From assembly GCA_040766525.1 (NCBI GenBank), contig JAXGQI010000004.1, positions 9,869 to 73,868 on the forward strand: a stretch of 64,000 bases of DNA, in the 5' to 3' direction. The first letter of the stretch is position 1, and every line of letters begins with the position of its first letter. Source of the stretch: Clostridiales bacterium (GTDB taxonomy: Bacteria; Bacillota; Dehalobacteriia; UBA7702). Positions 5,113 through 26,711 of the stretch are shown piece by piece. The notes under the pieces are model-generated. The model saw only the letters and a list, made by a program, of their open reading frames with translations, searched no databases and was not told where the DNA came from. Position numbers and translations under genes: made by a program.

Positions 5113-5246
5113 TAATGAAGCGGCTTTTCTCGCTATGTAAAGCTAACGAAAACCTATTATTCGGCAAACCGCTGAACTGGATAAAAAGCTCCCAAGGCAA
5201 AGTAACTTTTACCGTCTGCGAAAAACGGACATTGAAAAGAATCAAA

Positions 5247-7282: not shown

Positions 7283-7305
7283 ATATTACAGGGAGGCGAC
7301 AAATC

Positions 7306-8697: not shown

Positions 8698-8767
8698 ATC
8701 GCGGTGTGCTCCATAAAATAAATAAAAACAATAACAGAATTTATTATCACATTTGGGAGGATTAAAC

Positions 8768-8986
8768 ATGACTTTTGAAAAAGTGATCGCCATTTTAGCA
8801 GACCAGAAAGATTTGGACCCGAAAGAGATCACCATGGAATCCAGCTTTGCAGATTTGGGATTCGATTCCCTCGACACCGTTGTACTGATCATGGCCTTTG
8901 AAGAAGAATTTGGCGTAAACTTAGAAGTTAGCGATGCCATCAAGACTATTGGCGATGTGGTCGAATTGATCGAAAAGGAAGCATAA
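8768..8986 (+). CDS. acpP: Acyl carrier protein
   Basis: ORF 8753..8986 trimmed to ATG 8768 behind GGGAGG. Phosphopantetheine-attachment motif LGFDSLD. Confidence 0.9.
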
Positions 8987-8990
8987 TCCA

Positions 8991-9938
8991 ATGTTAAAAA
9001 CACCGCTTTGCGAATTATTGAACATTGAATACCCCATTCTCCAGGGAGGTATGGCTTGGGTTGCCGACGCCGATCTTGCCGCTGCCGTCTCCGAAGGCGG
9101 TGGACTAGGCATCATCGCGGCTATGAATGCGGGCCCCGACTGGCTCCGTGGAGAAATCCGCAAAATCAAAGAGCGGACGAAGAAGCCTTTTGGCGTCAAT
9201 TTTATGTTAAAAAGCCCTTTCGCTGCGGTGGCAGCGGAAATCTTTGCGTAAGTAAAGGTGCCGGTGGTAACCACCGGCGCCGGCAGTCCCCGCGGCTATA
9301 TGCCGCACTGGCTGGAATCGGGCATCAAGGTAATACCTGTGATCCCTTCCGCAGCGATTGCCAAAGCAATGGAAAAAGCCGGAGCCCACGCCGTAATTGC
9401 CGAAGGGACCGAATCCGGCGGCCATATCGGCGAACTCACCACCATGGCCTTAGTGCCCCAGGTGTGCGACGCTGTGGATATTCCGGTGATCGCCGCCGGT
9501 GGAATCGGCGACGGCAGAGGCCTCGCAGCCGCATTGATGCTCGGGGCGGTGGGAATCCAAGCAGGTACCCGCTTTTTGACTTCCACCGAAGCCAATATCC
9601 ACCCCAACTATAAAAAGAAGATCATCAAAGCCTCGGATATCGATACGATTGCGACCGGCAGAAGGCTGGGGCATCCCGTCCGGGCTTTGAAAACCAGTTT
9701 TACAAGAGAATTCCATGTCAAAGAATTCGATCTTTCCGTATCCAATGAAGAGTTGGAAGCCTTCGGAACCGGGGCTTTGCGCCTGGCGGCCGAAGTGGGA
9801 GACGAAAAGAACGGTTGCTTCATGGCAGGGCAGATTGCCGGCATGATCCATGAGGAAATGCCCGCAGCCGCCATCATTCAACAACTGTGCCAAGAAGCGG
9901 AAGCATTATTAAAGGTGGCTGATCAATGGGTAAAATAG
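8991..9938 (+). CDS. fabK: Enoyl-ACP reductase II (FabK, nitronate-monooxygenase fold) interrupted by an in-frame TAA at 9249-9251
   Basis: ORFs 8991..9251 and 9258..9938 are in the same frame. Sequence reads ...GVNFMLKSPFAAVAAEIFA*VKVPVVTTGAGSP...; the stop falls where FabK proteins as I recall them have Glu (GAA). Confidence 0.8.
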
Positions 9939-10834
9939 CCTTCGTATTTTCGGGCCAGGGCGCCCAATATCCGGGGATGGGGCATGACCTCTACGAAAAT
10001 TCCCCGGCGGCACAAAAAATCTTTACTCTGGTTGAAGAGATGCGCCCCGGCACCATGGAACAATGCTTTAACGGTACCAAAGAAATCTTATCCATTACGG
10101 AAAACACACAACCTTGCTTATATGCGGTGGATCTTGCCGCCGCGGTAGCCCTGGCGGAAAAAGGCGTCACCCCGGAAGGAGCCGCAGGATTTTCCCTGGG
10201 CGAAGTAGCCGCAGCCGCATTTTGCGGACTCTTTGGCTATGAAGACGGTTTTGCCTTTGTTTGCCAGCGCGCAGGACTCATGCAGTTATGTGGAGAGGAA
10301 AATCCCGGCGCTATGGCCGCGGTTCTCCTTTTGAAAAATGAAATTGTTGAAGACCTCTGTAAAGAAGTGGGAGAAGTTTACCCTGTAAATTACAATGGCC
10401 CAGGCCAATTAGTTGTAGCGGGAAAAGTCGCCGCGGTGGAAACCTTAATCAAAAAAGTTTCCGAAGTGCGAGGCAAAGCCTTGCGCCTCCCGGTGAGCGG
10501 AGCTTTCCATTCCCCCTTGATGGAAAAGGCGGCGGCAAGTCTCGCTCTAGCTATTGAGAATTACCCCATAGGCCAACTTCGCATCCCCCTTTACGCCAAT
10601 GCTACCGCCGAACCATACGGTGACGACCCGGGGCTTTTAGCCCTCCAAGTCAAAACGCCGGTGCAATGGGAAAAAACCGTACGCAATATGACCGCCGCCG
10701 GTTATACTACTTTTATCGAAGTCGGTCCGGGCAAAACTTTGCGGAATTTAATCAAGAAAATCGCGCCTCAAGTCCAGGCTTTGCATGTAGAAGATACGGA
10801 AAGCCTCCAACAAACCCTTGAGGCACTCAAATAA
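9926..10834 (+). CDS. fabD: Malonyl-CoA:ACP transacylase
   Basis: 302 aa; FVFSGQGAQYPGMG and active-site GFSLGE. Confidence 0.9.
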   Translation: MGKIAFVFSGQGAQYPGMGHDLYENSPAAQKIFTLVEEMRPGTMEQCFNGTKEILSITENTQPCLYAVDLAAAVALAEKGVTPEGAAGFSLGEVAAAAFCGLFGYEDGFAFVCQRAGLMQLCGEENPGAMAAVLLLKNEIVEDLCKEVGEVYPVNYNGPGQLVVAGKVAAVETLIKKVSEVRGKALRLPVSGAFHSPLMEKAAASLALAIENYPIGQLRIPLYANATAEPYGDDPGLLALQVKTPVQWEKTVRNMTAAGYTTFIEVGPGKTLRNLIKKIAPQVQALHVEDTESLQQTLEALK

Positions 10835-10844
10835 GGAGATTGTC

Positions 10845-11585
10845 ATGAGCGGAGAAAAAACGGCCATCATAACGGGAGGATCCCGGGGCATTGGCAAAGC
10901 GATCGCGCTGGCCATGGCCGCAGGAGGAATCAATATCGCCGTACTCTATGCCGGACGGGAAACAGAAGCGGAAGAAGTCTGTCAAAACGCCCGGGCAATG
11001 GGTGTTCGCGCTGAAAAATACTGTTGCGACGTGGCCAGTTTTGAAGCAACGAAGATGACCACCGACAAGATCATGACAGATTTCGGCACAATCGACATTC
11101 TTGTCAATAATGCCGGAATCACCAAAGATAAGCTTGTCGCCAGAATGACAGAAGAAGATTTCAACCAAGTATTGGATATCAATTTAAAGGGCGCTTTTCA
11201 CATGATACGCCATGTTTACAGCCATTTTCTCAAAAAACAAGCTGGGCGTATCATCAATGTTACATCGGTAGCAGGGCTAATGGGGAATCCCGGCCAAGCC
11301 AATTACGCTTCCTCAAAAGCGGGCCTGATCGGACTCACCAAAACGGTGGCGAAAGAATTGGCGGGGCGCAATGTGACCTGCAATGCCATAGCCCCCGGTT
11401 TCATTGAAACGGATATGACGGCGCAGCTGTCGGAGGCCGTAAAAACGCAGGCCCAGACGATTATTCCCATGAAGCGCATGGGCCAGGCGGAAGATGTGGC
11501 AGCACTCGCCGTTTTCCTAGCTTCGGACGCCGCAGGCTATATCACCGGCGAAGTGATCCGGGTTGATGGCGGACTTTCCATGTAA
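10845..11585 (+). CDS. fabG: 3-oxoacyl-ACP reductase (SDR)
   Basis: ORF 10818..11585 trimmed to ATG 10845 behind AAGGAG. TGGSRGIGKAIA, NNAGI, YASSKAG motifs. Confidence 0.9.
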   Translation: MSGEKTAIITGGSRGIGKAIALAMAAGGINIAVLYAGRETEAEEVCQNARAMGVRAEKYCCDVASFEATKMTTDKIMTDFGTIDILVNNAGITKDKLVARMTEEDFNQVLDINLKGAFHMIRHVYSHFLKKQAGRIINVTSVAGLMGNPGQANYASSKAGLIGLTKTVAKELAGRNVTCNAIAPGFIETDMTAQLSEAVKTQAQTIIPMKRMGQAEDVAALAVFLASDAAGYITGEVIRVDGGLSM

Positions 11586-11628
11586 GAAGCATTTACATCT
11601 ATTTGAATCAACAAGAGAGGATAGGACC

Positions 11629-12852
11629 ATGAAAAGAGTAGTCATCACCGGTCTCGGTGTCGTTTCCCCGGTGGGGATCGGCGTGCCGGAATTTTGGGAT
11701 GGATTGACGAAGGGCAAATCCGGCATCGGAGATATTACCCGGTTCGACACCACGGACTATAAAGTAAAGATCGCCGCTGAGGTCAAGGATTTCGATCCTT
11801 TGCAATATTTCGATAAATTTGAAGCCAAAAAGAACGATCTTTACACCCAATATGCTGTTGCCGCGGCTGACGAAGCCATGAAAGACAGCGGTTTAGAACT
11901 GAAAGGAGAACGTTTGGGCGTTTATGTCGGTTCCGGCATCGGCGGTATCAACACCTTCTTTAACGAATCCATTAAATTACAAACAAGAGGGCCGGGGCGG
12001 GTATCCCCCCTCTTCATCCCGATGATGATCGGCAATATCGCTGCCGGGGTCATCGCCATACGGTATCAAGCCCAGGGACCCTGCCTTCCGATCGTCACCG
12101 CCTGTGCAACCGGAAGTCACAGTATCGGAGAAGCCTACCATGCCATCGCCCACGGCTATGCCGATGCGATCATCGCAGGAGGGACCGAAGCATCCGTTAC
12201 GCCCATGGCGGTCGCAGGCTTTACCAATTGTTTAGCCTTAACAGAGCGGAATGACATCACCCGCGCCTCCATCCCCTTCGACCGGGAAAGAGACGGTTTC
12301 GTCATCGGGGAAGGAGCAGGAATCCTCGTTTTAGAAGAATATGAACATGCAGAGGCTAGAGGAGCCAAAATCTATGGGGAGATCTGTGGCTACGGCAATA
12401 CCTGCGACGCCCACCACATCACCGCACCCCATCCCGAAGGCGCACAAGCGGGTCGTGCCATCGGCTTGGCTTTAGCAGAAGCCGAATGGGCCGAAGATGA
12501 AAAAATATACATCAATGCCCACGGCACCAGTACCCCCTTAAATGATAAAACAGAAACAATGGCGATCAAAAAGGCACTGGGGAAAAAAGCCTACGAAGCC
12601 AAAATCAGTTCCACCAAATCGATGACCGGCCATATGCTGGGAGCAGCCGGTGCAGCAGAGGCTGTCGCCGCGATTATGGCTCTAAATACCGGCATACTAC
12701 CGCCGACCATCGGTTATCGGGAAGAAGACCCCGATTGCGATCTTGATGTTGTACCCAATCAAGCCCAAAAGGCTAATATCCAAATCGCACTTTCCAATTC
12801 ACTTGGGTTTGGTGGCCAAAATGCCTGCTTAGCCTTTAGAAAAGCACAATAA
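11629..12852 (+). CDS. fabF: 3-oxoacyl-ACP synthase II
   Basis: ORF 11563..12852 trimmed to ATG 11629 (MKRVVITGLGVVSPVG). Active-site ACATGSH; HGTSTPLND. Confidence 0.9.
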   Translation: MKRVVITGLGVVSPVGIGVPEFWDGLTKGKSGIGDITRFDTTDYKVKIAAEVKDFDPLQYFDKFEAKKNDLYTQYAVAAADEAMKDSGLELKGERLGVYVGSGIGGINTFFNESIKLQTRGPGRVSPLFIPMMIGNIAAGVIAIRYQAQGPCLPIVTACATGSHSIGEAYHAIAHGYADAIIAGGTEASVTPMAVAGFTNCLALTERNDITRASIPFDRERDGFVIGEGAGILVLEEYEHAEARGAKIYGEICGYGNTCDAHHITAPHPEGAQAGRAIGLALAEAEWAEDEKIYINAHGTSTPLNDKTETMAIKKALGKKAYEAKISSTKSMTGHMLGAAGAAEAVAAIMALNTGILPPTIGYREEDPDCDLDVVPNQAQKANIQIALSNSLGFGGQNACLAFRKAQ

Positions 12853-12880
12853 AAACAAATACAATAGGAGGATACTTCCT

Positions 12881-13309
12881 ATGATTCGAAGTCAAATACA
12901 ACAAATTCTGCCCCACCGTGAGCCAATGCTGCTCTTAGATGAGGTGGAGGCAATCGAAGGCGGCAAAGCCCATGGCCGCTACACGATCCGGGGAGACGAA
13001 TGGTTCCTGCAAGGCCATTTTCCCGGCAATCCGGTGGTACCCGGCGTCATTCAATGCGAAATGATGGCGCAAACCTGCTGCGTTCTCGTGGGCGAAACGG
13101 GAAAGACCCCGCTCTTTTCCGGGATCGAGCGCGTGCGCTTTAAAAACCCGGTTCACCCCGGCGATACCTTGGAGTTCATTTGCAGCTTGGAAAAGGTCAA
13201 AGGCCCGTTCTATTTTGCCAAAGGGCAAGGAAGCGTCAGCGGCAAACTTTGCGTGACGGGAGAATTCTCCTTCGCCTTGGTAGATACAGCGCCGCAATCC
13301 TCAAATTAA
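12881..13309 (+). CDS. fabZ: 3-hydroxyacyl-ACP dehydratase
   Basis: 142 aa; LPHREPMLLLD, LQGHFPGNPVVPGV. Confidence 0.9.
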   Translation: MIRSQIQQILPHREPMLLLDEVEAIEGGKAHGRYTIRGDEWFLQGHFPGNPVVPGVIQCEMMAQTCCVLVGETGKTPLFSGIERVRFKNPVHPGDTLEFICSLEKVKGPFYFAKGQGSVSGKLCVTGEFSFALVDTAPQSSN

Positions 13310-13350
13310 AAAGAGTTTTTATCCAATAATATAAATTTATATTTAAAAAA

Positions 13351-13377
13351 GAGAGCCGCTAACGGCTCTCTTTTTTT
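13351..13377 (+). terminator. Rho-independent terminator of the fab operon
   Basis: GAGAGCCG-ctaa-CGGCTCTC followed by TTTTTTT. Confidence 0.8.
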
Positions 13378-13585
13378 CGCATTTTACGCACAAAAAACTC
13401 TCCGCTCGATCAAAGAGAGAAAAAAATTTTTATTTTTTTATAAACCTAAATAAATATATACCTTTCCAAAACCGCCTTTTCCTGCCCTTTTTCCTCTTGC
13501 AAAACCATAATCGATGATTTAATATAAAGGCAATTTAGCATGGAGACGCTTATGACCATCCAAAATTTAGGAAGAGGTGAATAAA

Positions 13586-14806
13586 ATGCAACTGAAAGAT
13601 GTCAATCTTTCCGCCCAGGAAATCATGGAAATCACGGAAAAGTATCTCATCGAAACCTATCCGCGCTTTCCTTTTGTCGCCGTCAGAGCGAAAGACCAAT
13701 ATCTCTATGACAGCGAAGGCAATGCCTGGCTCGATTTTTATGCCGGGATCGCCGTCAACAGCTGCGGCAGCGTCAATGAAAAAGTGACCGCAGCCATTCA
13801 AGAACAAGCCGCCCAATTGGTACACACGTTTAATTACCCCTATACGATCCCCCAAGCCGTTTTGGCAAAATTGATCTGCGATCATATCGGCATGGATAAG
13901 ATCTTCTATCAAAGCAGCGGCACCGAAGCCAATGAAGGCATGATCAAATTGGCAAGAAAATATGGGGTCGACAAATACGGACCGGAAAAATACCATATCG
14001 TCACCGCCAAAAAAGGCTTCCACGGGCGCACTTATGGCGCTCTCTCCGCCACGGGGCAACCGGAAAGCGTCCTCCACAAAGGATTCCAGCCCCTGCTGCC
14101 GGGATTCACCTATGCGGACTATAATGATCTCGACGCCTTTAAGGCGGCCTGCACCGAACAAACCATCGCCATCATGATCGAACCGATTCAGGGGGAAGGC
14201 GGCGTCATCCCGGCCACCCAAGAATTTATGACCGGGTTAAGAAAATTCTGCGACGACAATGGCATCCTCCTGCTTTTGGACGAAGTGCAATCCGGCTGGG
14301 GCCGCACCGGTACGCTGATGGCCTATATGGGCTACGGAATCAAACCGGATATCGTCAGCATGGCAAAGGCGCTCGGAAACGGCGTTCCCATCGGCGCTTT
14401 CTGCGCTACGGATGAAGTGGCCAAAACTTTCGGCGCCGGAGCCCACGGCACCACCTATGGCGGCAATGTCTTAGCCTGCGCGGCTTCTTATGCCGCCGTC
14501 AGCGAAATTATCAACCGTGACCTTGCCGGCAATGCCGCCAAAATCGGGGCCTATTTCAGTGGGTTATTACAAAAACTGCCCCACGTGAAAGAAGTCCGGG
14601 GCAAAGGCCTATTGGTCGGCGTCGAGTTCGACGCTCCCGTCGCCGCTGCGGTTAAGAAAGGCTGCATTGACCGGCGCCTTTTGATCACCGCACTGGGAGA
14701 TACGACAATTCGCATGGTTCCGCCGCTGATCATCACCGAAGCGGACTGCGATCAAGCATACGGCATCATTAAAGAGGCGGTAGAGGAGGTTTATGCCAAG
14801 GCATAA
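13586..14806 (+). CDS. Class-III PLP-dependent aminotransferase (acetylornithine / 4-aminobutyrate aminotransferase-like)
   Basis: ORF 13577..14806, ATG 13586 preferred (RBS GAGGTG 6 nt upstream). LLLDEVQSGWGRTG and the Schiff-base lysine context SMAKALGNGVPIGA. Confidence 0.8.
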   Translation: MQLKDVNLSAQEIMEITEKYLIETYPRFPFVAVRAKDQYLYDSEGNAWLDFYAGIAVNSCGSVNEKVTAAIQEQAAQLVHTFNYPYTIPQAVLAKLICDHIGMDKIFYQSSGTEANEGMIKLARKYGVDKYGPEKYHIVTAKKGFHGRTYGALSATGQPESVLHKGFQPLLPGFTYADYNDLDAFKAACTEQTIAIMIEPIQGEGGVIPATQEFMTGLRKFCDDNGILLLLDEVQSGWGRTGTLMAYMGYGIKPDIVSMAKALGNGVPIGAFCATDEVAKTFGAGAHGTTYGGNVLACAASYAAVSEIINRDLAGNAAKIGAYFSGLLQKLPHVKEVRGKGLLVGVEFDAPVAAAVKKGCIDRRLLITALGDTTIRMVPPLIITEADCDQAYGIIKEAVEEVYAKA

Positions 14807-14925
14807 AGCAACCCGCAAAAACCGCTCGCTTAAATCACCTATAGTAAGAGGTGGCGTTCCTTTTCCGGCACGCCCCTCTTTTCTTTTTATTTTTTCCTGG
14901 TATACTAGGATATGAGGTGAGAAAA

Positions 14926-16401
14926 ATGGATGAGAAAGATCGTATCCGCAAACTGGAAAATGAGAACCGCTTACTTTACGAAATCCTCGATAACATCCAT
15001 GAAGCCGTTTACGCCACCGACATGAATAAGCGCATTTTCATTTTTAACCACCAATTTGAGGTTTTGGAGGGACGCCCCAAAGAAGTCGTCCTCGGCAAAA
15101 CGGAAAACCAGGCCTATTATCGGGAAGGCTATAGCTTCACCGATTATGTTCTCGACCAGATCAAAAAGAAAAAGGGGCCGCTCCGCAATCAATGCTATTA
15201 CTATACCCCTCGCGGCGGCAAGAAAAACTATTTTTTCTATGACGCTTACCCGTTCTACAACGACGAAGGCGAGATCATCGCCATCTATTGCGTGGGCCGG
15301 AACATGGAACAGATCGGCACATTCTTCGCCGACACCTATGAACTTCAGCATCAAATCCTGCTGGATAAAAACCCCAAGAAAAAGCGGGCCCGTTACCTCC
15401 TAAAAGACATCATCGGAGAAAACCCCCTCTTAAAAGCGAATATTGAAACCGCAAAAAAAGTAGCCCGGGGAGATTCCTCCGTCATGATCATCGGGGAAAC
15501 CGGTACCGGTAAAGAATTATTTGCCTCGGGCATCCACAATGCCAGTTTGGTAGCGCAAGGGCCGTTCATCCCCATCAATTGCAGCGCGATACCGGAAACG
15601 CTGTTGGAAAGCCTCGTTTTCGGCAGCGTCAAAGGCGCTTTTACCGGAGCGACGAATTCTCCTGGTCTTTTCGAGCAGGCCAAGGACGGGACCATCTTCT
15701 TTGATGAGATCAATTCCCTGCCTTACGCTCTGCAAGGGAAACTGCTTCGAGTCATCCAAGAGAAAATCGTACGGCGCGTGGGGAGCAAAGAAGAAATTCC
15801 GGTCAATTGCCGCATCATCAGCGCCGCCAATGTGGACCCTTTTGATAAAAGCAATGGCGGCAGCATCCGCCAGGACTTACTTTTCCGCTTATCTGCGATC
15901 GTGATCCAGATTCCGCCGCTACGGGAACGGCCGGAAGATATCGAACCGCTGATCTGCCACTTCATCGCCAAGCACAATGAACGGGCAGGGAAATTCGCCC
16001 AGGACATCAGCGAAGAACTGCGCACCCTCTTTTATAATTATTCCTGGCCCGGCAATGTGCGGGAGATGGAAAACATCTTTGAGGGCGCCATGAACTTCTT
16101 GGAATTGAAAGATGAGATCATCGAAACGCGCCATATCCCGGAATACATCATCACCCGGCTAAAAGAAAAAAATGCAAACCCGGAACCCTATTACGGCGTC
16201 GGCGAGCAATTACCCAAGCCGGAACTGCCCCAATACAAACAAATGCTGAACAATACGAAGAAAAAGGAAAAACAGATCATCAAAGCCGCCCTGGAAAAAC
16301 ACAATGGCAATATGAACCAAGCTGCGATTGAAATGGGCATCAGCCGCCAAAGCCTGTACTACAAGATGAAAAAATATGGCTTCACGGAACCAAAAGTGTA
16401 A
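14926..16401 (+). CDS. Sigma-54-dependent transcriptional activator (PAS sensor + AAA+ + Fis-type HTH)
   Basis: ORF 14851..16401 trimmed to ATG 14926 behind GAGGTG. Walker A GETGTGKE, sigma-54 contact loop GAFTGA, C-terminal HTH NMNQAAIEMGISRQSLYYKMKKYG. Confidence 0.85.
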   Translation: MDEKDRIRKLENENRLLYEILDNIHEAVYATDMNKRIFIFNHQFEVLEGRPKEVVLGKTENQAYYREGYSFTDYVLDQIKKKKGPLRNQCYYYTPRGGKKNYFFYDAYPFYNDEGEIIAIYCVGRNMEQIGTFFADTYELQHQILLDKNPKKKRARYLLKDIIGENPLLKANIETAKKVARGDSSVMIIGETGTGKELFASGIHNASLVAQGPFIPINCSAIPETLLESLVFGSVKGAFTGATNSPGLFEQAKDGTIFFDEINSLPYALQGKLLRVIQEKIVRRVGSKEEIPVNCRIISAANVDPFDKSNGGSIRQDLLFRLSAIVIQIPPLRERPEDIEPLICHFIAKHNERAGKFAQDISEELRTLFYNYSWPGNVREMENIFEGAMNFLELKDEIIETRHIPEYIITRLKEKNANPEPYYGVGEQLPKPELPQYKQMLNNTKKKEKQIIKAALEKHNGNMNQAAIEMGISRQSLYYKMKKYGFTEPKV

Positions 16402-16457
16402 AAAAATTTTCACTTCGATGTAAAAAAATGTTTACCTGATGTAAAAACGTTTTTACA
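16397..16457 (+). promoter_or_regulatory. Three tandem TGTAAAAA-N-TTTTTACA palindromes (candidate enhancer/UAS sites for the adjacent sigma-54 activator)
   Basis: Sites start at 16397, 16419 and 16440 (spacing 22 and 21 bp). The third, TGTAAAAACGTTTTTACA, is a perfect 18-bp palindrome. They lie about 100 bp upstream of the -24/-12 promoter. Confidence 0.5.
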
Positions 16458-16470
16458 AATTTACCATAAA

Positions 16471-16504
16471 TCACCCTTCCAAAACGGAAAGGGTGATTTT
16501 TTTG
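16471..16504 (+). terminator. Rho-independent terminator after the activator gene
   Basis: TCACCCTTCC-aaaac-GGAAAGGGTGA then a T-run. Confidence 0.65.
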
Positions 16505-16549
16505 CGCTCGATAGCTGCAATGACAATATTTTTTTCCTCACGGGAAATG

Positions 16550-16565
16550 TGGCACTCTTTTTGCT
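16550..16565 (+). promoter_or_regulatory. Sigma-54 (-24/-12) promoter
   Basis: TGGCAC-tcttt-TTGCT matches the consensus TGGCAC-N5-TTGCW exactly. About 145 nt upstream of the BCCT transporter start. Confidence 0.7.
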
Positions 16566-16711
16566 ATAGGATTAGTTATCACCCCCATTTTGAAAAAAAT
16601 CAAGGGGATCGTCTTTAAACAATGGCAGCTTGTACCCATCATACGCGAAAATCCAGGAAAGGAGGGCAGAAAAAGAACAAGCCAAAATCCATGAATAAAG
16701 GAGATGACATT

Positions 16712-18305
16712 GTGAGCCAAAAGATCGATAAAGTTTCCATAGGCGTTAGCCTCGCTTTACTTGCCACACTGGTGATATGCACCATTTTCGTTCCCGATGC
16801 CACCACAAGCGGTTTGGTGGCAGCCAAAAATGCCGTTGTAAAATGGCTCGGCTTTTATTTCATTTTGATGATTATCTTTATGCTTGGTTATAATTCCTGG
16901 CTTGCCTTATCAAAATATGGCAGCATTCGTTTAGGCAAGGAAAAACCGCAATACAATACTTTTGGCTGGATCGCCATGGTATTTTGTGCCGCAATGGGCA
17001 CCAGCATCCTCTACTGGTCCGCCATCGAATGGATGTACTATGTTCAATGGCCGCCCTTTGGCATGGAAGCTATGAGCGTTGAAATTGAGGAATTATCCAT
17101 GGCCTACAGCTTCTTCCATTGGGGCATTCCCGCATGGAGCGTTTATGCAACAGGGGTTATCCCCATTGCCTACCGCTACTTCGTTCGCAAAAAAGAAGGT
17201 CTCGGTCTTCAAGACGCCTGCGAAGGTGTTTTGGGTGAAAAAGCATACGGACCCATCGGCCGCATCATTACCATCGTCTTTGTTTTCGGTATTCTGGGCG
17301 GACTTACCATTTCCTATGGTACCGGCGTACCGATGCTCGCCAATAATTGTAGCAAATCTGGTCGGAACACCGGAAACCTTCCCTGTCTTCGTCGGTATCG
17401 TCATTGTGATCACCGTCGTATTTTCCTGGAGCGCTTTATCCGGGATCAAAAAAGGGATCCAGATGCTTTCCAAAATCACGACCATTATGGCTTTGGTATT
17501 AATTGGACTTTTCTTACTCCTTGGCAATGGCCTCTTCCAAGTCGAAAATACGGTCCAGGCCACCGGCTTAATGTTCCAACATTTTCCGGAAATGCTCTTC
17601 TATCTTGATCCGGTTCGCGATACCAATTTCCCCCAAGATTGGACAGTATTCTATTGGGCCTGGTGGCTCGGGTTGGCGCCGGTCATGTGGATTTTCATCG
17701 CTAAGATCTCTGCCGGCAGAAGCATCCGTTCCGTTATCCTCACCGTTATACTGGCCGGTTCCGCAGGGTCGATCGTTTTCTTCGGCAGCATCTCCAATTA
17801 CGGGTTAGGACAACAGCTCGCCGGCACTTTCGATTTTGTCAATATTATGGGTCAATTGGGAGAAAAACAAGCGATTTCCGCCGTTGTCATGTCATTACCT
17901 GCCGGGAAACTCATCCTTGGGCTATGGCTCCTAACCGGCTTCATCCTTCTGGTAACCACGATGGACTCCGCCGCCTATACTATGGGCGCTGCAACTGTCA
18001 TCGGGCTTGGAACCTGGGATGATCCGCCGAAAACATTGCGTGTCTTCTGGGCTGTGATGCTCACCATCACACCGCTATGCCTACTTTATGCCGGATCAAG
18101 TTTAAGCGGGTTCCAATCCGTCTTGATCCTAACCTCCATACCGGTATCCGCCTGTATTATCATGGCCATGGTCTCCTGCTCTAAATGGCTAAGAGAAGAT
18201 TATGGTCATAAAACAAGAGAAGAAATTCAATTGGAATTTATGACGGAAGATGATCGCAGGGTCTATGATGATAAACGGAAAAAAGATTTGGAAATGACAA
18301 TATAA
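16712..18305 (+). CDS. BCCT-family (betaine/carnitine/choline) transporter, apparent 1-nt frameshift near 17342
   Basis: ORFs 16622..17608 and 17079..18305 join as ...GTGVPMLA / IIVANLVGTPETFP.... Start set at GTG 16712 behind AAGGAG. BCCT signature region WTVFYWAWWLGLAPVMWIFIAKISAGRSIR. Confidence 0.8.
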
Positions 18306-18403
18306 ACCACTCTCACATTAACCTCAACAGGGGAAAAGCACTTTGCTGAAAATGCAAAAGGGGCCGTGGCAAAGCCCGGCCCCGCCATCCCTTCGAAAAA
18401 AAT

Positions 18404-18421
18404 TTATCATGCACATGATAA
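18404..18421 (+). promoter_or_regulatory. 18-bp perfect palindrome (possible operator) upstream of the MttB-family gene
   Basis: TTATCATGcaCATGATAA, 50 nt upstream of ATG 18471 and followed by an AT-rich TATAAA-like stretch. Confidence 0.3.
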
Positions 18422-18470
18422 TTATTATAAAAATAAAGACAAAACACATCTAGGCGAAAGGAGTAATATC

Positions 18471-19884
18471 ATGAGTTTCGATTATGTAAAAAAGGGATTT
18501 AGCCAAAATCCACGTAGCAACCTTGGATATCTTGGAAAGAATCGGCGTACGAAGCAAATCCCAAAGGTTTCTGGACAAGGCGGCGAGTTTGGGTCTACAG
18601 GTAAAAGACGGTACCATTTATTTTCCCAGGGAAACGGTGAATGAAGCAATCAAAAAAGCGCCTTCCCATTTTTCCACCTACGGACGGGACGACAAATACG
18701 AGATCAAATGGGGGGAAGGCCGCGCTTATAATCATACCTGCGTAGGGACCCCGTTTATCAAAGATTTAGCAACCAACGAAAAGAAAGCGGTTCACTACAG
18801 TGATTTGGAAAATTTCGTTCGTGTATCCGATGCGCTGCCCGCTACCGACATTATCTCCTGCATTTTCCCGCAGGATATCCCGGAACAGGCCGCGGTAACG
18901 GTACAAACGGCGGCAATGGTCAAAAATACGACCAAACCGTTGCGGATCTGCATTGAATCGGACCACGAAACCAAATATATCATTGAAGTCTTGGCGGCTG
19001 CCGTGGGCGGTTTGGAAGCATTGAAAGAAAAACCCATCGCTTATCTGGAAGTATCCCCCATCAGCCCCTTAGACTATGCCATCGGACCTTCCAACGGATT
19101 ACTGGATACGGTGGAAGCGGGACTGCCTTTAGGCATTATCCCCTGCCCGATGCTGGGAGCTACCGGGCCGATGACCTTGATCGGTACCGTAACGATGCAC
19201 AATGCGGAAATGCTGGCCGGCGTTGTTATCGCACAATTGATGCGTCCGGGCACTCCCGTCATCATGTCTCCCCGGGTTACTTTCATTGATATGCGTACTG
19301 CCATGGGGCTGTGGGCCGCACCGGAAATGGGCCTTGCCGCTACCGTTTCGATTCAAATGGCCAAATATTACGGGATTCCCAGCACGGCTACAGGCTTCTC
19401 CTGCGCTTCCAAAATTACCGACGAGCAAGCCGCTTTCGAATCCATGTACAATGCGCTCTTGCCGGCATTGGCAGGGGCGGATGTCATCGGGGCCTCCGGC
19501 TCTCTCGACAATGCCCTCGTTTCCTGCTACCGGAAATTGATTGTCGATAATGAGATCTCTTCTCTCATCCAGCGGGCCGTCAAAGGAGAAATCGTCGATG
19601 AAGACACCTTGGCCGTCGACGTCATTGACGAAGTGGTCCATGGCGAACGGAACTTCCTCGGCCATCCCCACACGCTGAAACATCTGCGTACAGAATTATG
19701 GCAACCGTTCCTCTCCGACCGGGCCACCTATGAAGGCTGGCAGGAAGGGGGCAGCACCACTTTTGAAGAACGGGCAAAGGTACTGGCAGAAAAATTACTC
19801 GCCAATCATACCGTCGAGCCTCTCCCGGCTCCCGCCATTAAAGCGATTGATGAAATCGTCGCCAGGGCAATAAAAGGAGAATAA
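18471..19884 (+). CDS. MttB-superfamily methyltransferase WITHOUT pyrrolysine (quaternary-amine:corrinoid methyltransferase type, MtgB-like); N-terminal homopolymer frameshift at about 18488-18496
   Basis: ATG 18471 behind AAAGGAG gives MSFDYVKK, then a frame change in the AAAAAAGGG run joins to LAKIHVATLDILERIGV (ORF 18523..19884). At the position equivalent to Pyl the sequence is TGFSCASKITD, with no stop codon. Confidence 0.8.
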
Positions 19885-19940
19885 AATTTACAACCGAATA
19901 TAGAACACAAATAAGGAAATTCGCATAAGGAGGTTGAAAG

Positions 19941-21326
19941 ATGAAGAAATACTTAACCCGTTACGGAGATAACTATGCCGGTTATATGAGTGAATCCGAC
20001 ATCAGGGCCGACATCGAAAATGGGGTACAAGACGCAGCGGACCGGGGAAAAATTCCGCCGTTAAGTGCGGAAGATATGGAACTCTTATTTGAGATCATCA
20101 CTTCCCCGCAAAAGCTCGTTTCCGTCGAACCGGGAAAAGAAGTCGTCGTCTCTTTTGATGCTGGAACCTTAAAACTACCTGTTAGAAACGGCATCCCCAT
20201 GGATCGTCTCCAAGCGATTTTGACCCAGGAGCGGGCTTTGGCTTCAGACAGTATTGAACTGTGCCATGTGGATTACAGTTATAAACCGGTGAAAGCCATC
20301 ATCAGCGAAGAACGGCAAGCGATGGAACAGGCTCAGCTGATGACAACATTGCCGCTCCTCTACGGCGCTATGCCCAACCTCGGGCTCTACACAAAACCCG
20401 ATGGCCCCGTAGGAAACTGGTCGGAATTATTACCGGCAGGGAAAATCGATGAAGCAAGAGAAGCCCAGGATGAAGCTATCCAACATGCGATCAAAGATAT
20501 CGTCTTTGTTGCCTCGAATATGATTGAGAGCGGTGCCGACGGCATCAACCTCGACACCGTAGGCGCTTCCGGCGATGCGGATGTCAAGGCCAGCTTGGAA
20601 GCGGTGCGGATCTTAAAAGGGAAATATCCCCATATCGGTTTTGAAACCGGAATGGCCGGGGAATTCAATATGGGCATGCACGGTCTTTTAGAGATCGATG
20701 GGCAGCGTATCGCCGGTTTATACCCGCATGAGCAGGTGAAAATGGCGGAAAAATGCGGCGTTTCCATCTTCGGCATGGCCGTCAATACCAATAGTTCGAT
20801 GTCCCTCGCTTGGAATCTCGCCCGGGTCTGCACTTTTGCCAAAGAAGCGGTACGGGTAGCAGAAATCCCCGTCCATGCCAATGTCGGCATGGGGGTCGGC
20901 GGGATCCCTCTATCCATCATTCCCGCAGCCGACGCCGTATCCAGAGTGGACAAAGCGCTGGTGGAAATTGCCCATGTCGACGGGTTGTAGGTAGGCGCCG
21001 GAGATACTTTCAGGATGGCGGTCACCCATGAAGCCACCGCCGGAATGGGCGGCATCCGGGCAGCGGGAGACCTCGTCTTCCGGATGGAACTGGCCAAAAT
21101 GAAAATCGATCAAGCCAAAGCTTTTGTTGCGGAAAAATTGCATGTTGGCGTGGAGGACCTCGCCGATTGCGCCGTAATGAAAGATTTGAGAGAAGAATTG
21201 AATATCGGCACCACACAAAACCGGCCCAATGCCGGCGTAGGCATCCAAACGAAATTCCGTATCGCTGAGATTATGGGAATCCCCATCAACAGCGTTGAGA
21301 AATTCAAAAAAGAAGCTGGAATATAA
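19941..21326 (+). CDS. mtbB: Dimethylamine:corrinoid methyltransferase with in-frame UAG (pyrrolysine) at 20988-20990
   Basis: ORFs 19941..20990 and 21015..21326 are in the same frame. Sequence reads ...[50 protein letters not shown].... As I recall it, Methanosarcina MtbB reads VDGI-Pyl-IGVGDP...[14 protein letters not shown], collinear on both sides of the UAG. Confidence 0.85.
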
Positions 21327-21343
21327 TATAAGGAGGGAAACAT

Positions 21344-22815
21344 ATGGGTCTCAGAAACGATAGAGCCGGATATCAGCAACTTAGCGGCTTTGGAATCAAT
21401 ATTTTTAGCGAAGATGAACTCTACGCCCTCCATCTATCCACCTTGGAGGTCTTACAGGATGTCGGTATCCGCATTAACGCAGCGGACGCCAGAGAAGCCT
21501 TAGCAGCGGCAGGCGCCGTGGTCGATGAAAAAAACCGCATCGTCCATTTCCCCGGCTGGCTCGTAGAAGACGCGATTCGCACAGCGCCGAAGGCGGTTCT
21601 CTTCGCCGGCAGAAATCCCAAAAATGATTATATATTGGAAACCAACCGCGTGGGCTTTACCAATTTCGGTGAAGGCATCATGGTCAATGACATCTATACC
21701 GGAGAATACCGGCGCAGCACCAAAAAGGATACGGGGGACGCCGCTCGCTTAGTGGACGCTTTGGACGCCATTGATATCCACGAAAGAGCCCTTTCCGCCC
21801 AAGACGTACCGGCTCCCATCGCCTCGCTTCACGAGGTTGAAATCAATATCACCAATACTTCCAAACACATCGCCCAAGGCTGTAGCGGCAAAAAGAACCT
21901 GCAACGCATCTACAAAATGATGTGCAAAATTGCAGGTTCCGAAGAAGCCTATCGGCAACGCCCCACCTACAGCACCATCACCTGCCCGATCAGCCCCCTG
22001 CAATTGGCGCCGGAAAGTACCGACGTCATCATGGAGTCGGCTCGCCTCGGCGTACCGATCACCATTATCTCCATGGCCTTATCCGGCGGCACCACGCCGG
22101 TAACGCTGGCAGGAACGCTGATTACCCATAATGCGGAGGTTTTGGCGGCAATTGTTCTTTCCCAAGTCACCAAAAAAGGCGCCCCCATCGTTTACGGCAG
22201 TTCCACCACAATCATGGATCTGAAGTATACGACCTCCCCTGTGGGCTGCCCGGAATTGGGAATGATCAATGCGGCTGTTGCGAAAATGGCGCAGTTCTAT
22301 AACCTCCCCAGCTGGGTCGCGGGCGGCTAGGCAGACAGCAAAATCGCGGACGGCCAAGCGGCGCACGAAAAAACCGTCACCGCTCTGCTCCCGGCATTGG
22401 CAGGCGCCAATGTCATCTATGGGCTGGGCATGTTGGAACTCGGTATCACTTTAGATTTCGCGCAGCTGGTTATCGACAATGAAATCGCCGCCATGATCAA
22501 ATGGGCAGTCAAAGGAATCGATGTTGATGATTATGAAATGGCTGTTCATGTGATCAAGGAAGTCGGCGTAGCCGGAGAATTTATCACCCATCAGCATACC
22601 TATGACAATTTCAAGGCTGTACAATCCAGTACCCGCCTCTTTGACCGGCAGATGCAGGAAGGCTGGGAGGCTATGGGAGGAAAAGATTTGCTGGAAAGAG
22701 CAACGGAACGAGCAAAATACATTCTGGAAAATCATAAACCGGACCCGCTCCGCATGGAGCCGCCGCTTATATGGCAGAGATCATCGCGGAAGCCAAAGAG
22801 GAAGAGAACCTCTAA
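21344..22815 (+). CDS. mttB: Trimethylamine:corrinoid methyltransferase with in-frame UAG (pyrrolysine) at 22328-22330; additional apparent frameshift near 22745-22755
   Basis: ORFs 21344..22330 and 22397..22915 share a frame. Sequence reads ...[47 protein letters not shown].... The likely true C-terminus (HGAAAYMAEIIAEAKEEENL, stop at 22813-22815) is in another frame. Confidence 0.8.
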
Positions 22816-22893
22816 ACCCATGCCCCACAAAAATAATATATACCTACATATATATTATAAGGAAGGTTTGGCTTCACCGAACCTTCCCGGAGT

Positions 22894-22996
22894 ATTGATC
22901 AAGTCGGTAAGATGAGAGCAACGGCCAACAAACCAAAGACCCTGGACGCATGGCGTATCGACATACGCTGGTGGTCAGGGGCTTTGGTTTAACAAC
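22894..22996 (+). repeat. Structured repeat / candidate ncRNA, copy 1
   Basis: ATTGATCAAGTCGGTAAGATGAGAGCAAC... then a long hairpin AAACCAAAGACCCTG-GACGC-A-[GCGTAT cgac ATACGC]-TGGTGGTC-AGGGGCTTTGGTTT. Homologous to 24641..24765 and, with compensatory stem changes, to 42892..43011. Preceded by a small hairpin at 22861-22887. Confidence 0.6.
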
Positions 22997-23162
22997 AGAA
23001 ATGTTTTTTGACTGCTGCTTCAGGAAGAATATTGGCAAAATCCGTACTTGACTTTGCCGCTAAAGAAAAAAGCGGCAAAACAGGGTTTTTCTCCTATAGC
23101 TGGAATATTACTATTGTAATATTTTTAGAAAACATCGAACAGAAAGGAAGGTCGCTATTGAG

Positions 23163-24566
23163 ATGTCCATTCAATTGATTATTATCATCATATATTTTGC
23201 CATCACGATCACCATCGGTCTGATCGCAAAGAAAAAATCCACCAGTTCCAACAGCTTCCATGGGGCAGGGCTCGGTTGCCTCATGTGTGTTGCGGCAGGG
23301 ACGGGAGAGTGGCTGGGAGGAACCGCCACTACAGGGGTTTCCGAATATGGTTTCCTCTATGGTATTTCCGGGGCCTGGTATACCATTGCCAATGGCCTTG
23401 GCGTCATCGTGCTGGCAATCTTTTTTGCGAAATTGTACCGCAGCCTGGATACGGTCACCGTTCCCGGCATCGTGGAAAAATATGTCGGCATTGATGCCCG
23501 CCTTGTTGCCAGCATTCTTTTGACCTTCGTTATGCTGGCAGTGGGCACTTCCCAATTATTGGCCGCCGGCGCATTGGGCGTCACGATCCTGGGTTTACCG
23601 TATGAAGCCTGCGTACTGATTTTGGGCATCGGCTTTATCGTCTATACCTTAGCCGGCGGTATGGTCGCCGTGGGCTATACCAATATTATGCACTTGATTA
23701 CGATGTACGGCGGCGTCTTGCTTGCGCTCTTCTTTGTAATCAAAGGCTTAGGCGGTCCGGAAGTTTTAAGCACGCAGCTGCCGGAAAGTTATTTCTCCAT
23801 GAGCAGCATCGGCATGACCAAGGTCTCCTCCTGGCTCATTGCCTCCGTTCTCGGGGCTTGTACGGCACAAGCGGGGATTCAACCCATCTTGGCGGCAAAA
23901 GATGTTCATGTAGCCAGAAAAGCCGCCTTCATCACCGCTTTTGTGGTGGCGCCTTTCGGCATTTTGACGGCATTTTTGGGCATGAGCGCAAAAATCGCCT
24001 TGCCGGGATTGGCCGACGCCAAGCAGGCTTTGCCCCAGTTGCTTCTGACTTTGGACCCCGTCATTGGCGGCCTCGTTTTGGCCGCGATCTTTGCGGCCAT
24101 CCTTTCGACGATCTCTCCGATCATCTTAGCCAGCGGCACGATGATCACGAAAGACATTTATCAACGCAGAATCAATCCGGAGGCCCCGGACACACAAGTT
24201 TTGAAGATTTCCAGGATCTTTACGGGACTCGCCGGCGTTGTCTGCATTATCTTAGCTCTGCTATTATATGGTTCTACAACCATTCTCGATATGGTCTACT
24301 TTGCTTACAGCCTCAGAGGCGCCATCTTCGTCGTTTTGATCTTTGCCATCTATTGGAAGAAGACGTCGCCGAAAGGCGCAACTTACGCCATGGTTTTCAC
24401 CGGGATCGTCGGCGCACTCTGGGTCATAGGGAAAAGTGTGGGCGGCAGTTATCCCATCCACCCCGCTTTCACGGAAACCTATGCTTCGGTATTAGCCGCC
24501 ACATTATCCACCATCGTATTCAGCTATCTGTTTAAGAAAGAGCCCGGCTCCATCACAAACAAATAA
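23163..24566 (+). CDS. Sodium:solute symporter (SSS) family transporter
   Basis: 467-aa polytopic membrane ORF; N-terminal region IIIYFAITITIGLIAKKK...GEWLGGTATTGVSEYGFLYGISGAWYTIANGLG is typical of SSS proteins. Confidence 0.8.
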   Translation: MSIQLIIIIIYFAITITIGLIAKKKSTSSNSFHGAGLGCLMCVAAGTGEWLGGTATTGVSEYGFLYGISGAWYTIANGLGVIVLAIFFAKLYRSLDTVTVPGIVEKYVGIDARLVASILLTFVMLAVGTSQLLAAGALGVTILGLPYEACVLILGIGFIVYTLAGGMVAVGYTNIMHLITMYGGVLLALFFVIKGLGGPEVLSTQLPESYFSMSSIGMTKVSSWLIASVLGACTAQAGIQPILAAKDVHVARKAAFITAFVVAPFGILTAFLGMSAKIALPGLADAKQALPQLLLTLDPVIGGLVLAAIFAAILSTISPIILASGTMITKDIYQRRINPEAPDTQVLKISRIFTGLAGVVCIILALLLYGSTTILDMVYFAYSLRGAIFVVLIFAIYWKKTSPKGATYAMVFTGIVGALWVIGKSVGGSYPIHPAFTETYASVLAATLSTIVFSYLFKKEPGSITNK

Positions 24567-24609
24567 CCCCTGGAATAACGCAAACAAATTTGGTAAGAAT
24601 AAGACAAAA

Positions 24610-24636
24610 AGAGGAATTGCTTATTGCAATTCCTCT
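24610..24636 (+). terminator. Stem-loop after the SSS gene (weak terminator; also the 5' hairpin of repeat copy 2)
   Basis: AGAGGAATTGC-ttatt-GCAATTCCTCT, but no adjacent T-run. Its left arm is repeated at 24792-24808. Confidence 0.3.
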
Positions 24637-24640
24637 TCAG

Positions 24641-24765: not shown

Positions 24766-24790
24766 CTATCGGCTTTTGTCTGCAGTCTCA

Positions 24791-24831
24791 AAAGAGGAAT
24801 TGCTTATTGAATAAGCAATTCCTCTTTTTTC
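24791..24831 (+). terminator. Rho-independent terminator immediately 3' of repeat copy 2
   Basis: AAAGAGGAATTGCTTATT / AATAAGCAATTCCTCTTT long stem followed by TTTTTT. Confidence 0.7.
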
Positions 24832-24916: not shown

Positions 24917-25387
24917 ATGGATCCGTTGGCCATCTTGAACAGCGCCGCCCTACAGAAAGCCCAAACCATACAGGAATTACAAGAATGCAATGAAATTACC
25001 CTGCGCTTCGGGCTCTATCTTTCCGATCGGCAGATCAACGACCTTGTGGAAAAACGCTTCCAGGCGTTACAGGCCACCGGGCGCATCGAATTCGGCAAAG
25101 GTATCCTGAAAAAACTGCTTTGCACATTTGCCGATTCCCCTTATATCATGCAAGATCACTATGAAGAGATCATTTGGGAACTTTTAGATATCTTCTATTA
25201 TTTCAAGAATGAATCCCTGGATTTGATCGGCGATGACGATTTGATCGCCATCATGAAAGATCACTTTGATACCATCTGCCAAGGTTCCTTGGAATATTTG
25301 GGCGGCACGACCTTGGATGATCTTTGCCGGGATACCCGTTTCGGCCGTCTGGTGCAAGAAAGGGATAAATATCGCCATGACTTCTGA
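24917..25387 (+). CDS. Hypothetical protein (acidic, helical; no function I can assign)
   Basis: 156-aa ORF. Its stop overlaps the next gene's start (ATGACTTCTGA), implying translational coupling. Confidence 0.65.
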   Translation: MDPLAILNSAALQKAQTIQELQECNEITLRFGLYLSDRQINDLVEKRFQALQATGRIEFGKGILKKLLCTFADSPYIMQDHYEEIIWELLDIFYYFKNESLDLIGDDDLIAIMKDHFDTICQGSLEYLGGTTLDDLCRDTRFGRLVQERDKYRHDF

Positions 25388-26711
25388 TTTGACCAAACAA
25401 GACCATGCCCTTGCCGCTCCCCCCACTATCACTTTGGGCAGCGGAGAATATTTGGCCCAAGTGATTCAATACGGCTTCGCCCAGGAGATCTTGACCATTG
25501 AAGATCAAAGGGCGCTGCAGCAGCAGCTTTGGCTTTTGATGGAACAGCAAACGAAGCGCTATACCTGGGAAGAGAGCAGTTCGATCCCGGTGGAAACAGC
25601 GGAAGAACTCCTCACTTCCGTCCAAACGACCTTGGGCCGGGCCTTACGGAAGGAAGACGATCTCAAGGCCGCAGCCTGGCGCCTCAAAACCACGCCCCTA
25701 GCAAAACTGCTCACCGAGGGACAGCAAGAGCTGGAACTGGCCATCGCAAAAGGCAAACGCCTCCTCAAACAAGTGCAGGATTCCGCCCTCCCGATCAAGA
25801 ATCTCTCTTATCACGATACATTGAAAGAGCTGGATTCCTTTTTCCTCCGCTACGATCATCGGCTTTTTGCCCATGACATCCCCTGCTCCCTCGATTATCA
25901 GCTTTGCCGTCATATCCCGGGATTGCAAGGGATCGAATATATCAACGCTTATCTCTACAATTTATTGATCGAGAATACCTTTTGCCGTCATTTTGACAAA
26001 GAACATATAGAAAAGCTCCTTACGGCTTACCATCCCAGTTATCCGGTATTGCTGCTCAATATTTTTGAGCCGGTCTTTACGAGTGCCCTGGGGTTGACCT
26101 TATTAGAAAAAGAGATTTCCCCTTTGGAAATCCGGGAGGAAGACCGGAAGAAGTTAGAAATCCACTTCCGCAAACTCCCTATGGCGGAAGCGGAAGAGCG
26201 CCTAGCGGCAGCTTGCCAAAAACTTTGCCGCCTCCTTGGTATCGAAGACCAAGCATATTTAGATTCCGCAGCCAAAGAACTCTATACCCGCATCAAATCC
26301 ATCCCCGTTACAGAGGGGCTGGAAGCGGTTTTCCTCGCTTTTCGCGAGGCCGATTTCCCCAGCGACCCGCCCCACTATATCGACAATGACCCCATGGAAG
26401 ATAAGGCATTGCGGCACTTGATCGAAAAAATCCGCCGCTGTGATGACGTTGAAGAAAAGATCTCCCTGGTAAAGGGGAAAATCCATAGCCTGCAGGATCT
26501 CGTCGAAGTACTCGGCGCTTGCTTTTGGGAAGAAGAAAGCCTCGCTTTGTTTCGAACATTGGCAGATACGGAAATCGCCTTGCTATGCGACCATATTCGG
26601 GACAAGCGGGCATTCCAGCCGAATTGGGCCTCCGACACCCGCTGGGAAGACCGGCTGCTCTCCTATAGTAAAGCATGCAGAACAACGGAAACCGAACAGG
26701 ATTCTTTTTGA
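25377..26711 (+). CDS. Hypothetical protein (about 444 aa, helical, acidic)
   Basis: ORF 25266..26711 trimmed to ATG 25377 (MTSDLTKQDHALAAPP...), overlapping the upstream stop by 11 nt. Confidence 0.65.
   Translation: MTSDLTKQDHALAAPPTITLGSGEYLAQVIQYGFAQEILTIEDQRALQQQLWLLMEQQTKRYTWEESSSIPVETAEELLTSVQTTLGRALRKEDDLKAAAWRLKTTPLAKLLTEGQQELELAIAKGKRLLKQVQDSALPIKNLSYHDTLKELDSFFLRYDHRLFAHDIPCSLDYQLCRHIPGLQGIEYINAYLYNLLIENTFCRHFDKEHIEKLLTAYHPSYPVLLLNIFEPVFTSALGLTLLEKEISPLEIREEDRKKLEIHFRKLPMAEAEERLAAACQKLCRLLGIEDQAYLDSAAKELYTRIKSIPVTEGLEAVFLAFREADFPSDPPHYIDNDPMEDKALRHLIEKIRRCDDVEEKISLVKGKIHSLQDLVEVLGACFWEEESLALFRTLADTEIALLCDHIRDKRAFQPNWASDTRWEDRLLSYSKACRTTETEQDSF

Follow-up and report, generated by a model that had tools for sequence, protein, structure and literature searches.

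Within the 64-kb stretch of DNA analysed here (the window: positions 9,869 to 73,868 of contig JAXGQI010000004.1, assembly GCA_040766525.1) lies a methylated-amine locus in which a sigma-54 activator and two transporters accompany three distinct substrate-specific methyltransferase (MT1) genes, two of them pyrrolysine (Pyl)-dependent, and in which no corrinoid protein is encoded. We propose, with a probability of roughly 0.7, that this locus provides the substrate-specific half of a corrinoid-dependent methyl-harvesting system that is split in two. It is a known kind of system in an unusual, lineage-specific layout, in which one sigma-54 unit holds the three MT1 genes and a second locus holds those for the corrinoid protein, the methylcorrinoid:tetrahydrofolate methyltransferase (MT2) and Pyl. 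The missing corrinoid partner is most likely supplied from that second locus, on evidence from the nearest relative of the window organism. The source lineage is an uncultured member of the Bacillota, anaerobic in the explanation proposed here; its RpoA is 84% identical to many proteins from metagenome-assembled genomes (MAGs), 74% identical to that of Ca. Formimonas warabiya, 73% to that of Zhaonella and 71% to that of Moorella.

Gene identities were assigned from the open reading frame (ORF) listing and translations, followed by Pfam and NCBIfam profile scans. All genes of the locus lie on the plus strand, beginning with a class-III (ArgD-like) aminotransferase (13577-14806, which falls 5' of the span originally described; PF00202; TIGR00707 score 427, passing the cut-off of 410) and a 491-aa sigma-54 enhancer-binding protein (EBP; 14926-16401) with PAS, Sigma54_activat (PF00158, 1e-57), AAA_lid_14 and HTH_8 domains. 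These are followed by a frame-split BCCT-family transporter (16712-18305; PF02028 divided between two frames, profile positions 4-203 and 206-485), which is intact in the nearest relative (530 aa), and by a frameshifted MttB-superfamily methyltransferase that does not use Pyl (18471-19884; PF06253, 4e-90; TIGR02369 score 378, under the cut-off of 525). We refer to the latter as MtxB, a term taken from PMC10653893, because the glycine-betaine residues of the characterized enzyme MtgB are lost across its clade, as described below; an intact 471-aa relative (P0002) is 86% identical to it. The two Pyl-dependent enzymes come next, the dimethylamine (DMA) methyltransferase MtbB (19941-21326; PF09505, 1e-183; TIGR02368 score 487, passing the cut-off of 369) and, after a gap of only 17 bp, the trimethylamine (TMA) methyltransferase MttB (21344-22815; TIGR02369 score 687 for the 21344-22765 product, passing the cut-off of 525). 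A sodium:solute symporter (SSS; 23163-24566; PF00474, 7e-43), 90% identical to its ortholog in the nearest relative, completes the set. The gene order given in the original prediction, made from the letters of the window, is therefore real by profile scans, the promoter it described and palindromes at its upstream site are likewise present, and its claim of three distinct MT1 enzymes in one locus under a sigma-54 promoter and an EBP is borne out by the family scans and the promoter. Conserved synteny and purifying selection on the genes confirm the observation and place it well above chance.

Both Pyl-dependent genes carry an in-frame TAG at the canonical Pyl position (20988-20990 in mtbB, 22328-22330 in mttB), and the Rfam elements PYLIS_2 (20988-21087, 57 bits) and PYLIS_3 (22328-22427, 80 bits) start exactly on the respective TAGs. 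In the collected loci described below, a TAG occupies the aligned codon in 51/51 MtbB and 26/26 Pyl-MttB homologs, and MtbB is 76-92% identical across Bacillota. Neither tRNA-Pyl nor any of pylT, pylS, pylB, pylC and pylD was found within the window. By family assignment, the conversion of TMA to DMA and then to monomethylamine (MMA) appears to be the only well-grounded part of the pathway.

The absence of a corrinoid protein from the window, as originally predicted, was borne out by each search made for one. No B12-binding domain was detected in a Pfam scan of the ORFs covering 1-43.5 kb, no match to the expression DxHxxG...SxL...GG was found in all six frames of the whole window, and tblastn against the window with MtbC, MttC, MT2, RamA, PylB, aldehyde:ferredoxin oxidoreductase (AOR) and TauE queries (E<=10) returned noise only. 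Beyond 43.5 kb, inspection by eye showed ribosomal, ECF-transporter and rpoA genes. Neither a cognate MttC beside mttB nor an MtbC beside mtbB was found, the gene after mttB being that for the SSS transporter. A three-component system encoded together was thus not found in the window, which holds MT1 genes with no corrinoid protein, Pterin_bind MT2 or RamA.

Scanning genomes with MtbB yielded 42 loci from Bacillota, Coriobacteriia and Desulfobacterota. Homologs of the non-Pyl enzyme, a starting point free of bias toward mtbB, gave further loci through their genomic contexts, and the comparison covers 57 related loci (numbered with the prefix L; L001 is the locus of the nearest relative). Corrinoid adjacency was scored on tblastn maps for 58 mtbB genes: a corrinoid gene is adjacent to mtbB in 45/58, 3/58 are cut by contig ends and 10/58 have none adjacent. 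Seven loci with sequence available beyond mtbB contain no corrinoid match at all. Four of these make up the lineage of the window (the window itself, L001, L002 and L005); L021, L033 and L038 also have no corrinoid gene in the available sequence. Across lineages, the same three MT1 genes are accompanied by three, two, one or zero corrinoid genes, the single-corrinoid loci retaining MtbC only (L046) or MttC only (L015 and L007), and the window lineage is the zero end of this gradient. The corrinoid proteins therefore appear to be interchangeable, or shareable, among these MT1 enzymes. The author of the original prediction knew of no operon with this layout, and the missing adjacent corrinoid gene is indeed atypical, given that 45/58 mtbB genes have one, but the locus is not an isolated oddity, as its gene set recurs across Bacillota. 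A synteny comparison, which had been proposed as a check, finds the gene order identical and intact in three independent assemblies (L001-L003).

A candidate source for the missing partner is found in the assembly that contains L001, GCA_032941855.1, which carries a second locus (L052) on another contig (JAWDGO010000007.1, 1.1 Mb, positions 4353-15812). Its gene order is tRNA-Pyl(CUA), EBP, mtbB2, a 216-aa corrinoid protein (P0225) with B12-binding_2 and B12-binding domains, pylB, pylC, Pterin_bind MT2, mttB2 and BCCT2, and it adjoins a transposase. The second locus is also present in GCA_037975395.1, the assembly of L003. The prediction that the partner would be encoded elsewhere is supported by L052 for the nearest relative only. 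There is a precedent for such an arrangement in Eubacterium limosum, in which MtqC is the common methyl acceptor for MtpB, MtcB and MtyB, and separate clusters encode the MT1 enzymes, MtqC, and MtqA/RamQ (PMC8604678).

If no dedicated corrinoid protein were used, the enzymes would have to methylate free cobalamin or a non-canonical carrier. In vitro, MtgB and MtcB can use free cob(I)alamin as methyl acceptor (PMC8604678), and ECF transporter genes are present in the window. However, MtyB is unable to use free cobalamin (PMC8604678), all described physiological systems use a corrinoid protein, and the genome of the relative encodes a suitable corrinoid protein and MT2; we consider action on free cobalamin to be extremely improbable.

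Frameshifts disrupt three of the six locus genes in the window, and this, together with the absent corrinoid gene, could be taken to mean that the locus is decaying, its corrinoid genes lost and the remaining genes becoming pseudogenes. A 1-nt insertion splits the BCCT gene near 17349; in the non-Pyl gene, the run at 18488-18493 is one A too long, which places the ATG at 18471 out of frame with the gene body; and mttB has a 1-nt deletion near 22748, so that its C-terminus, ending in AAYMAEIIAEAKEEENL before the stop codon, is read in the other frame. The start at 18471 originally predicted for the non-Pyl gene accordingly fails, while the enzyme itself is real. Broken frames are not confined to this locus, as they also occur in rpsD, rpsK, rpsM, map and secY (48744-53419), and fabK, in a single frame, is interrupted by an in-frame stop (TAA, 9249-9251). 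The window assembly appears to hold about one indel per kb in places, and with frame changes in essential genes any pseudogene call in the window is therefore unsafe. L001-L003 carry intact orthologs of the locus, likewise without a corrinoid gene; L005 has the same gene order, with a fragmented non-Pyl gene and a split aminotransferase gene. Between the window and L001, dN/dS is 0.025-0.058 for each locus gene, and is higher, at 0.08-0.10, for fabF/fabD. Because essential genes are similarly broken, the relatives are intact and purifying selection is strong, the three frameshifts are most likely assembly errors rather than gene decay, and decay as an account of the locus is very unlikely.

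The non-Pyl enzyme has no in-frame TAG, carries Ser at the Pyl-equivalent position and shows the MttB-superfamily fold by PF06253; its best PDB match is Desulfitobacterium hafniense MtgB (E = 1e-66, ~32% identity). The glycine-betaine-binding residues of MtgB are Y97, R312, H348 and F356 (PMC13080624), and the aligned residues in the window protein are V, T, G and A, so that all four are missing and the "betaine-type" label does not survive this active-site comparison. The pattern extends through the clade as V-[TA]-G-[ACV], with only a single member lacking Thr at the second position, and because the glycine-betaine residues are lost across the clade the substrate is probably one without a carboxylate. 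Members of this clade (46-86% identity) cluster with Pyl-MttB and usually also with Pyl-MtbB, BCCT and EBP genes, and in each collected locus not cut by a contig end they are found together with Pyl-MttB. Such clusters occur in Desulfosporosinus, in Ca. Formimonas warabiya, in numerous MAGs and in a genome that encodes a protein identical to the one in Thermacetogenium phaeum; the proteomics paper on the Formimonas strain DCMF does not mention its ortholog of the non-Pyl enzyme. In some Desulfobacterota MAG loci (L036, L037 and L040), the protein beside mtbB-mtbC is instead MtgB-like, unlike the non-Pyl partner in the window, with the full Y-R-H-F/Y glycine-betaine signature and 38-40% identity to D. 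hafniense MtgB.

The original prediction had further proposed a stepwise route in which this enzyme would convert a quaternary amine to TMA, and MttB would convert TMA to DMA. The products of characterized non-Pyl MttB enzymes, such as dimethylglycine and dimethylaminoethanol phosphate (PMC13080624, PMC12155760), are tertiary amines that have lost one methyl group and are still attached to their backbone. TMA is not released by these enzymes, and the proposed route would therefore work only for tetramethylammonium. In this sole chemically consistent form, the non-Pyl enzyme would convert tetramethylammonium to TMA, and MttB and MtbB would continue to DMA and MMA. The constant association with Pyl-MttB would suit such a feeder, a BCCT carrier is adjacent, and the loss of both carboxylate-binding residues of MtgB (R312 = T, H348 = G) fits a carboxylate-free substrate. 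However, the cation-pi aromatics of MtgB are lost as well (Y97 = V, F356 = A), and the only characterized enzyme for this substrate, the tetramethylammonium methyltransferase MtqB, is a non-Pyl homolog of MtmB and not of MttB (PMC13044021). Tetramethylammonium is also scarce in the gut, rumen and digester habitats recorded for the clade; we judge this route quite unlikely.

An alternative use of the same three enzymes is suggested by the aminotransferase gene. The window aminotransferase is syntenic in L001 (85% identity), and a 65%-identical ortholog is found in L007, a Family XIII MAG (10001-14035), in a tight mtbB-SSS-aminotransferase operon in which a 60%-identical SSS ortholog lies directly 3' of mtbB. 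A different class-III subfamily (~32% identity) lies directly 5' of mtbB-mtbC, with AOR after, in the Desulfobacterota loci L023-L030 and the T. phaeum-type locus L051 (3208-4569). The window gene is thus a possible accessory gene of the locus, and the repeated linkage suggests that, downstream of MtbB, a primary amine is turned first into an aldehyde and then into an acid. On this basis the three MT1 enzymes might successively remove every methyl group from one quaternary amine that is bound to a backbone (choline type or omega-trimethylammonio-acid type), and the aminotransferase would convert the resulting primary amine to an aldehyde, to be oxidized in other lineages by AOR. Such exhaustive N-demethylation would be in keeping with the two unrelated arrangements that link an aminotransferase to mtbB (window lineage and L007), with the second subfamily and AOR flanking mtbB-mtbC elsewhere, and with the failure of T. 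phaeum to grow on TMA. Several observations argue against it: MttB and MtbB reach equivalog scores for the TMA and DMA enzymes of methanogens, the high identity of MtbB across Bacillota points to a single small substrate that has been conserved, bulkier amines are not known to be accepted by any Pyl enzyme, and the window aminotransferase, which passes the ArgD model, may be a plain arginine-biosynthesis gene. We regard exhaustive demethylation as decidedly unlikely. More generally, it is possible, if doubtful, that the non-Pyl clade, with its V-T-G-x-S signature, acts not on quaternary amines independently but as an obligate partner of the Pyl enzymes, either as a feeder from tetramethylammonium to TMA or as the first step of exhaustive demethylation.

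The regulatory half of the locus is consistent with control by sigma-54. The activator possesses a Walker A motif (GETGTGKE), GAFTGA and the HTH_8 DNA-binding domain, as found in EBPs, and is 91% identical to its L001 ortholog (dN/dS 0.025). The sole perfect match to a sigma-54 -24/-12 promoter in the whole window, TGGCACtctttTTGCT (TGGCAC-N5-TTGCT; 16550-16565, plus strand), lies 147 bp 5' of the BCCT start codon, and GTGGCACTCTTTTTGCTAT is unchanged in L001-L003, including the orthologous locus of a relative at ~80% nucleotide identity, although the surrounding spacer has diverged. No second such promoter, which might have served the SSS gene, is present. Three TGTAAAA-N-TTT(T)AC palindromes on the plus strand (16397-16413, 16419-16435 and 16440-16456), in blocks conserved in L001-L003, are putative upstream activating sequences and may be the binding sites of the activator. 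A hairpin followed by a T-run (16473-16500, plus strand; CACCCTTCC-AAAAC-GGAAAGGGTG-ATTTTTTT) is identified as the intrinsic terminator of the activator gene, and a hairpin and T-run are found at the equivalent place in L001. Within the predicted operon, the BCCT/non-Pyl spacer contains a conserved GC-rich hairpin without a U-tail (18360-18383, plus strand), which may act as a stabilizer or an attenuator, and two strong hairpins on the same strand lie 3' of mttB (22861-22887 and 22930-22990, the second followed by UUU; -63.9 kcal/mol, z = -5.7). The latter pair occurs at equivalent positions in L001 and is probably either the operon end or an mRNA 3' stabilizer, so that transcription of the SSS gene may be separate or attenuated. 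A scan for sigma-70 promoters and terminators found no excess over the shuffled expectation, Rfam searches found no riboswitch in the locus, and rpoN is absent within the 64-kb window. Among the related loci, an EBP gene is present in 30/45 and a perfect -24/-12 consensus in 21/51, several of these just 5' of mtbB, the BCCT gene or the non-Pyl gene. Sigma-54 control thus appears to be a family trait of these clusters; our literature search found no paper tying sigma-54 to these genes.

Combining these observations, the split system that we propose would operate as follows. The PAS-containing activator would bind the three palindromes and switch on an operon of the BCCT, non-Pyl, mtbB and mttB genes, with the SSS transporter and ArgD-like aminotransferase genes flanking it and probably functionally linked to it. 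By family assignment, Pyl-MttB would demethylate TMA and Pyl-MtbB would demethylate DMA to MMA, while the non-Pyl enzyme would demethylate another methylated amine, probably a carboxylate-free quaternary amine imported by the BCCT transporter. The three MT1 enzymes would pass their methyl groups to a corrinoid protein encoded elsewhere, and this protein, the methylcorrinoid:tetrahydrofolate MT2, the reductive activase and the Pyl machinery would come from elsewhere in the genome; of these, the corrinoid protein, MT2 and tRNA-Pyl/pylB/pylC are seen in the nearest relative only. Of the original interpretation, the sigma-54-regulated MT1 locus and the partner in trans are thus retained, and the betaine label and the route from a quaternary amine to TMA are not.

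A number of points weigh against this reading. The trans-encoded partner is seen only in a congeneric relative; for the window organism, the sequence covered is the 64 kb. The paralogs encoded by the window-type locus and L052 are only 59% (MtbB) and 52% (MttB) identical, which would make them old; this divergence also points to two old MtbB clades in Bacillota, one at least 76% identical to the window protein and the other ~60% identical. One corrinoid protein would have to serve Pyl-dependent MT1 enzymes of different clades. The indels that we ascribe to the assembly are not all within homopolymers, and the hairpins after the BCCT gene and after mttB may break the predicted transcription unit. 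Finally, T. phaeum has a corresponding cluster and yet does not grow on TMA (PMC3551663), and for this reason the physiological substrates of these bacterial clusters are not secure.

A comparison of the window locus with described systems shows both shared components and some significant differences in layout. It most closely resembles the clusters of T. phaeum (Tph_c27660-27720), Desulfosporosinus and Ca. Formimonas warabiya DCMF, which share Pyl-MtbB, Pyl-MttB and the non-Pyl clade (46-56% identity), and also have a BCCT transporter and usually a sigma-54 activator (PMC3551663, PMC9768040). A class-III aminotransferase and AOR recur in those clusters, and one to three corrinoid proteins lie between their MT1 genes, often with a Pterin_bind MT2 or PylB. 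In the window lineage the locus contains neither corrinoid nor MT2 nor pylB genes and, unlike those clusters, has mtbB between the non-Pyl gene and mttB. The split proposed here resembles that of the E. limosum MtpB/MtcB/MtyB enzymes, which are encoded apart from their shared partners MtqC, MtqA and RamQ (PMC8604678). The E. limosum MT1 enzymes, however, are all without Pyl and act on betaines, whereas two of the three in the window are Pyl-dependent and belong to families normally paired with MttC or MtbC. With the mttB-mttC and mtbB-mtbC pairs of Methanosarcina, the window shares orthologous MT1 families, UAG-Pyl at the same position and matching PYLIS elements. Methanosarcina differs in possessing an adjacent corrinoid protein and a coenzyme M-specific MT2 (MtbA), and in lacking both sigma-54 control and a co-operonic non-Pyl MttB homolog. 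Like D. hafniense MtgBCA, the window has a non-Pyl MttB-family MT1 with a BCCT transporter nearby, but at ~32% identity, with the four glycine-betaine residues differing and with no adjacent MtgC or MtgA in the window.

The locus and the L001 synteny both end at a perfect 19-bp palindrome, predicted to be a bidirectional terminator (24790-24829, plus strand). Two hairpins just 3' of the SSS gene, at 24606-24638 and 24790-24829, have the same 19-20-nt arms (AAAAGAGGAATTGCTTATT) and lie 183 nt apart. A DUF6323/DUF6179 pair (24917-26711) follows the locus, and GntR regulator and ABC transporter genes occupy the same position in L001. Upstream, the region at 4200-7700 has lower G+C (~42-44%) and few convincing ORFs, and an ORF at 4342-4722, with collagen-like GPQ/GPP repeats, may represent an exosporium-type gene that has suffered a frameshift. 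On the minus strand, 9 kb upstream of the locus, a gene at 1173-4166 encodes a 997-aa protein of the molybdopterin aldehyde oxidoreductase/xanthine dehydrogenase family with two [2Fe-2S] domains; any tie between it and the aminotransferase/aldehyde theme is speculative.

In conclusion, two cautions apply to annotation: an MT1 gene without a neighboring corrinoid gene need not be an orphan, and a frameshift in a noisy assembly need not mark a pseudogene. Bacterial Pyl-dependent methylamine metabolism, known mostly from genome annotation, disposes of TMA, which matters to both gut health and methane cycling. To this we add a recurrent Bacillota cluster type with sigma-54 activators, in which an uncharacterized non-Pyl clade is the constant companion of Pyl-MttB. 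If this clade is indeed an obligate partner of the Pyl enzymes, either form of that partnership would give bacterial Pyl-MttB/MtbB clusters a pathway not yet described.

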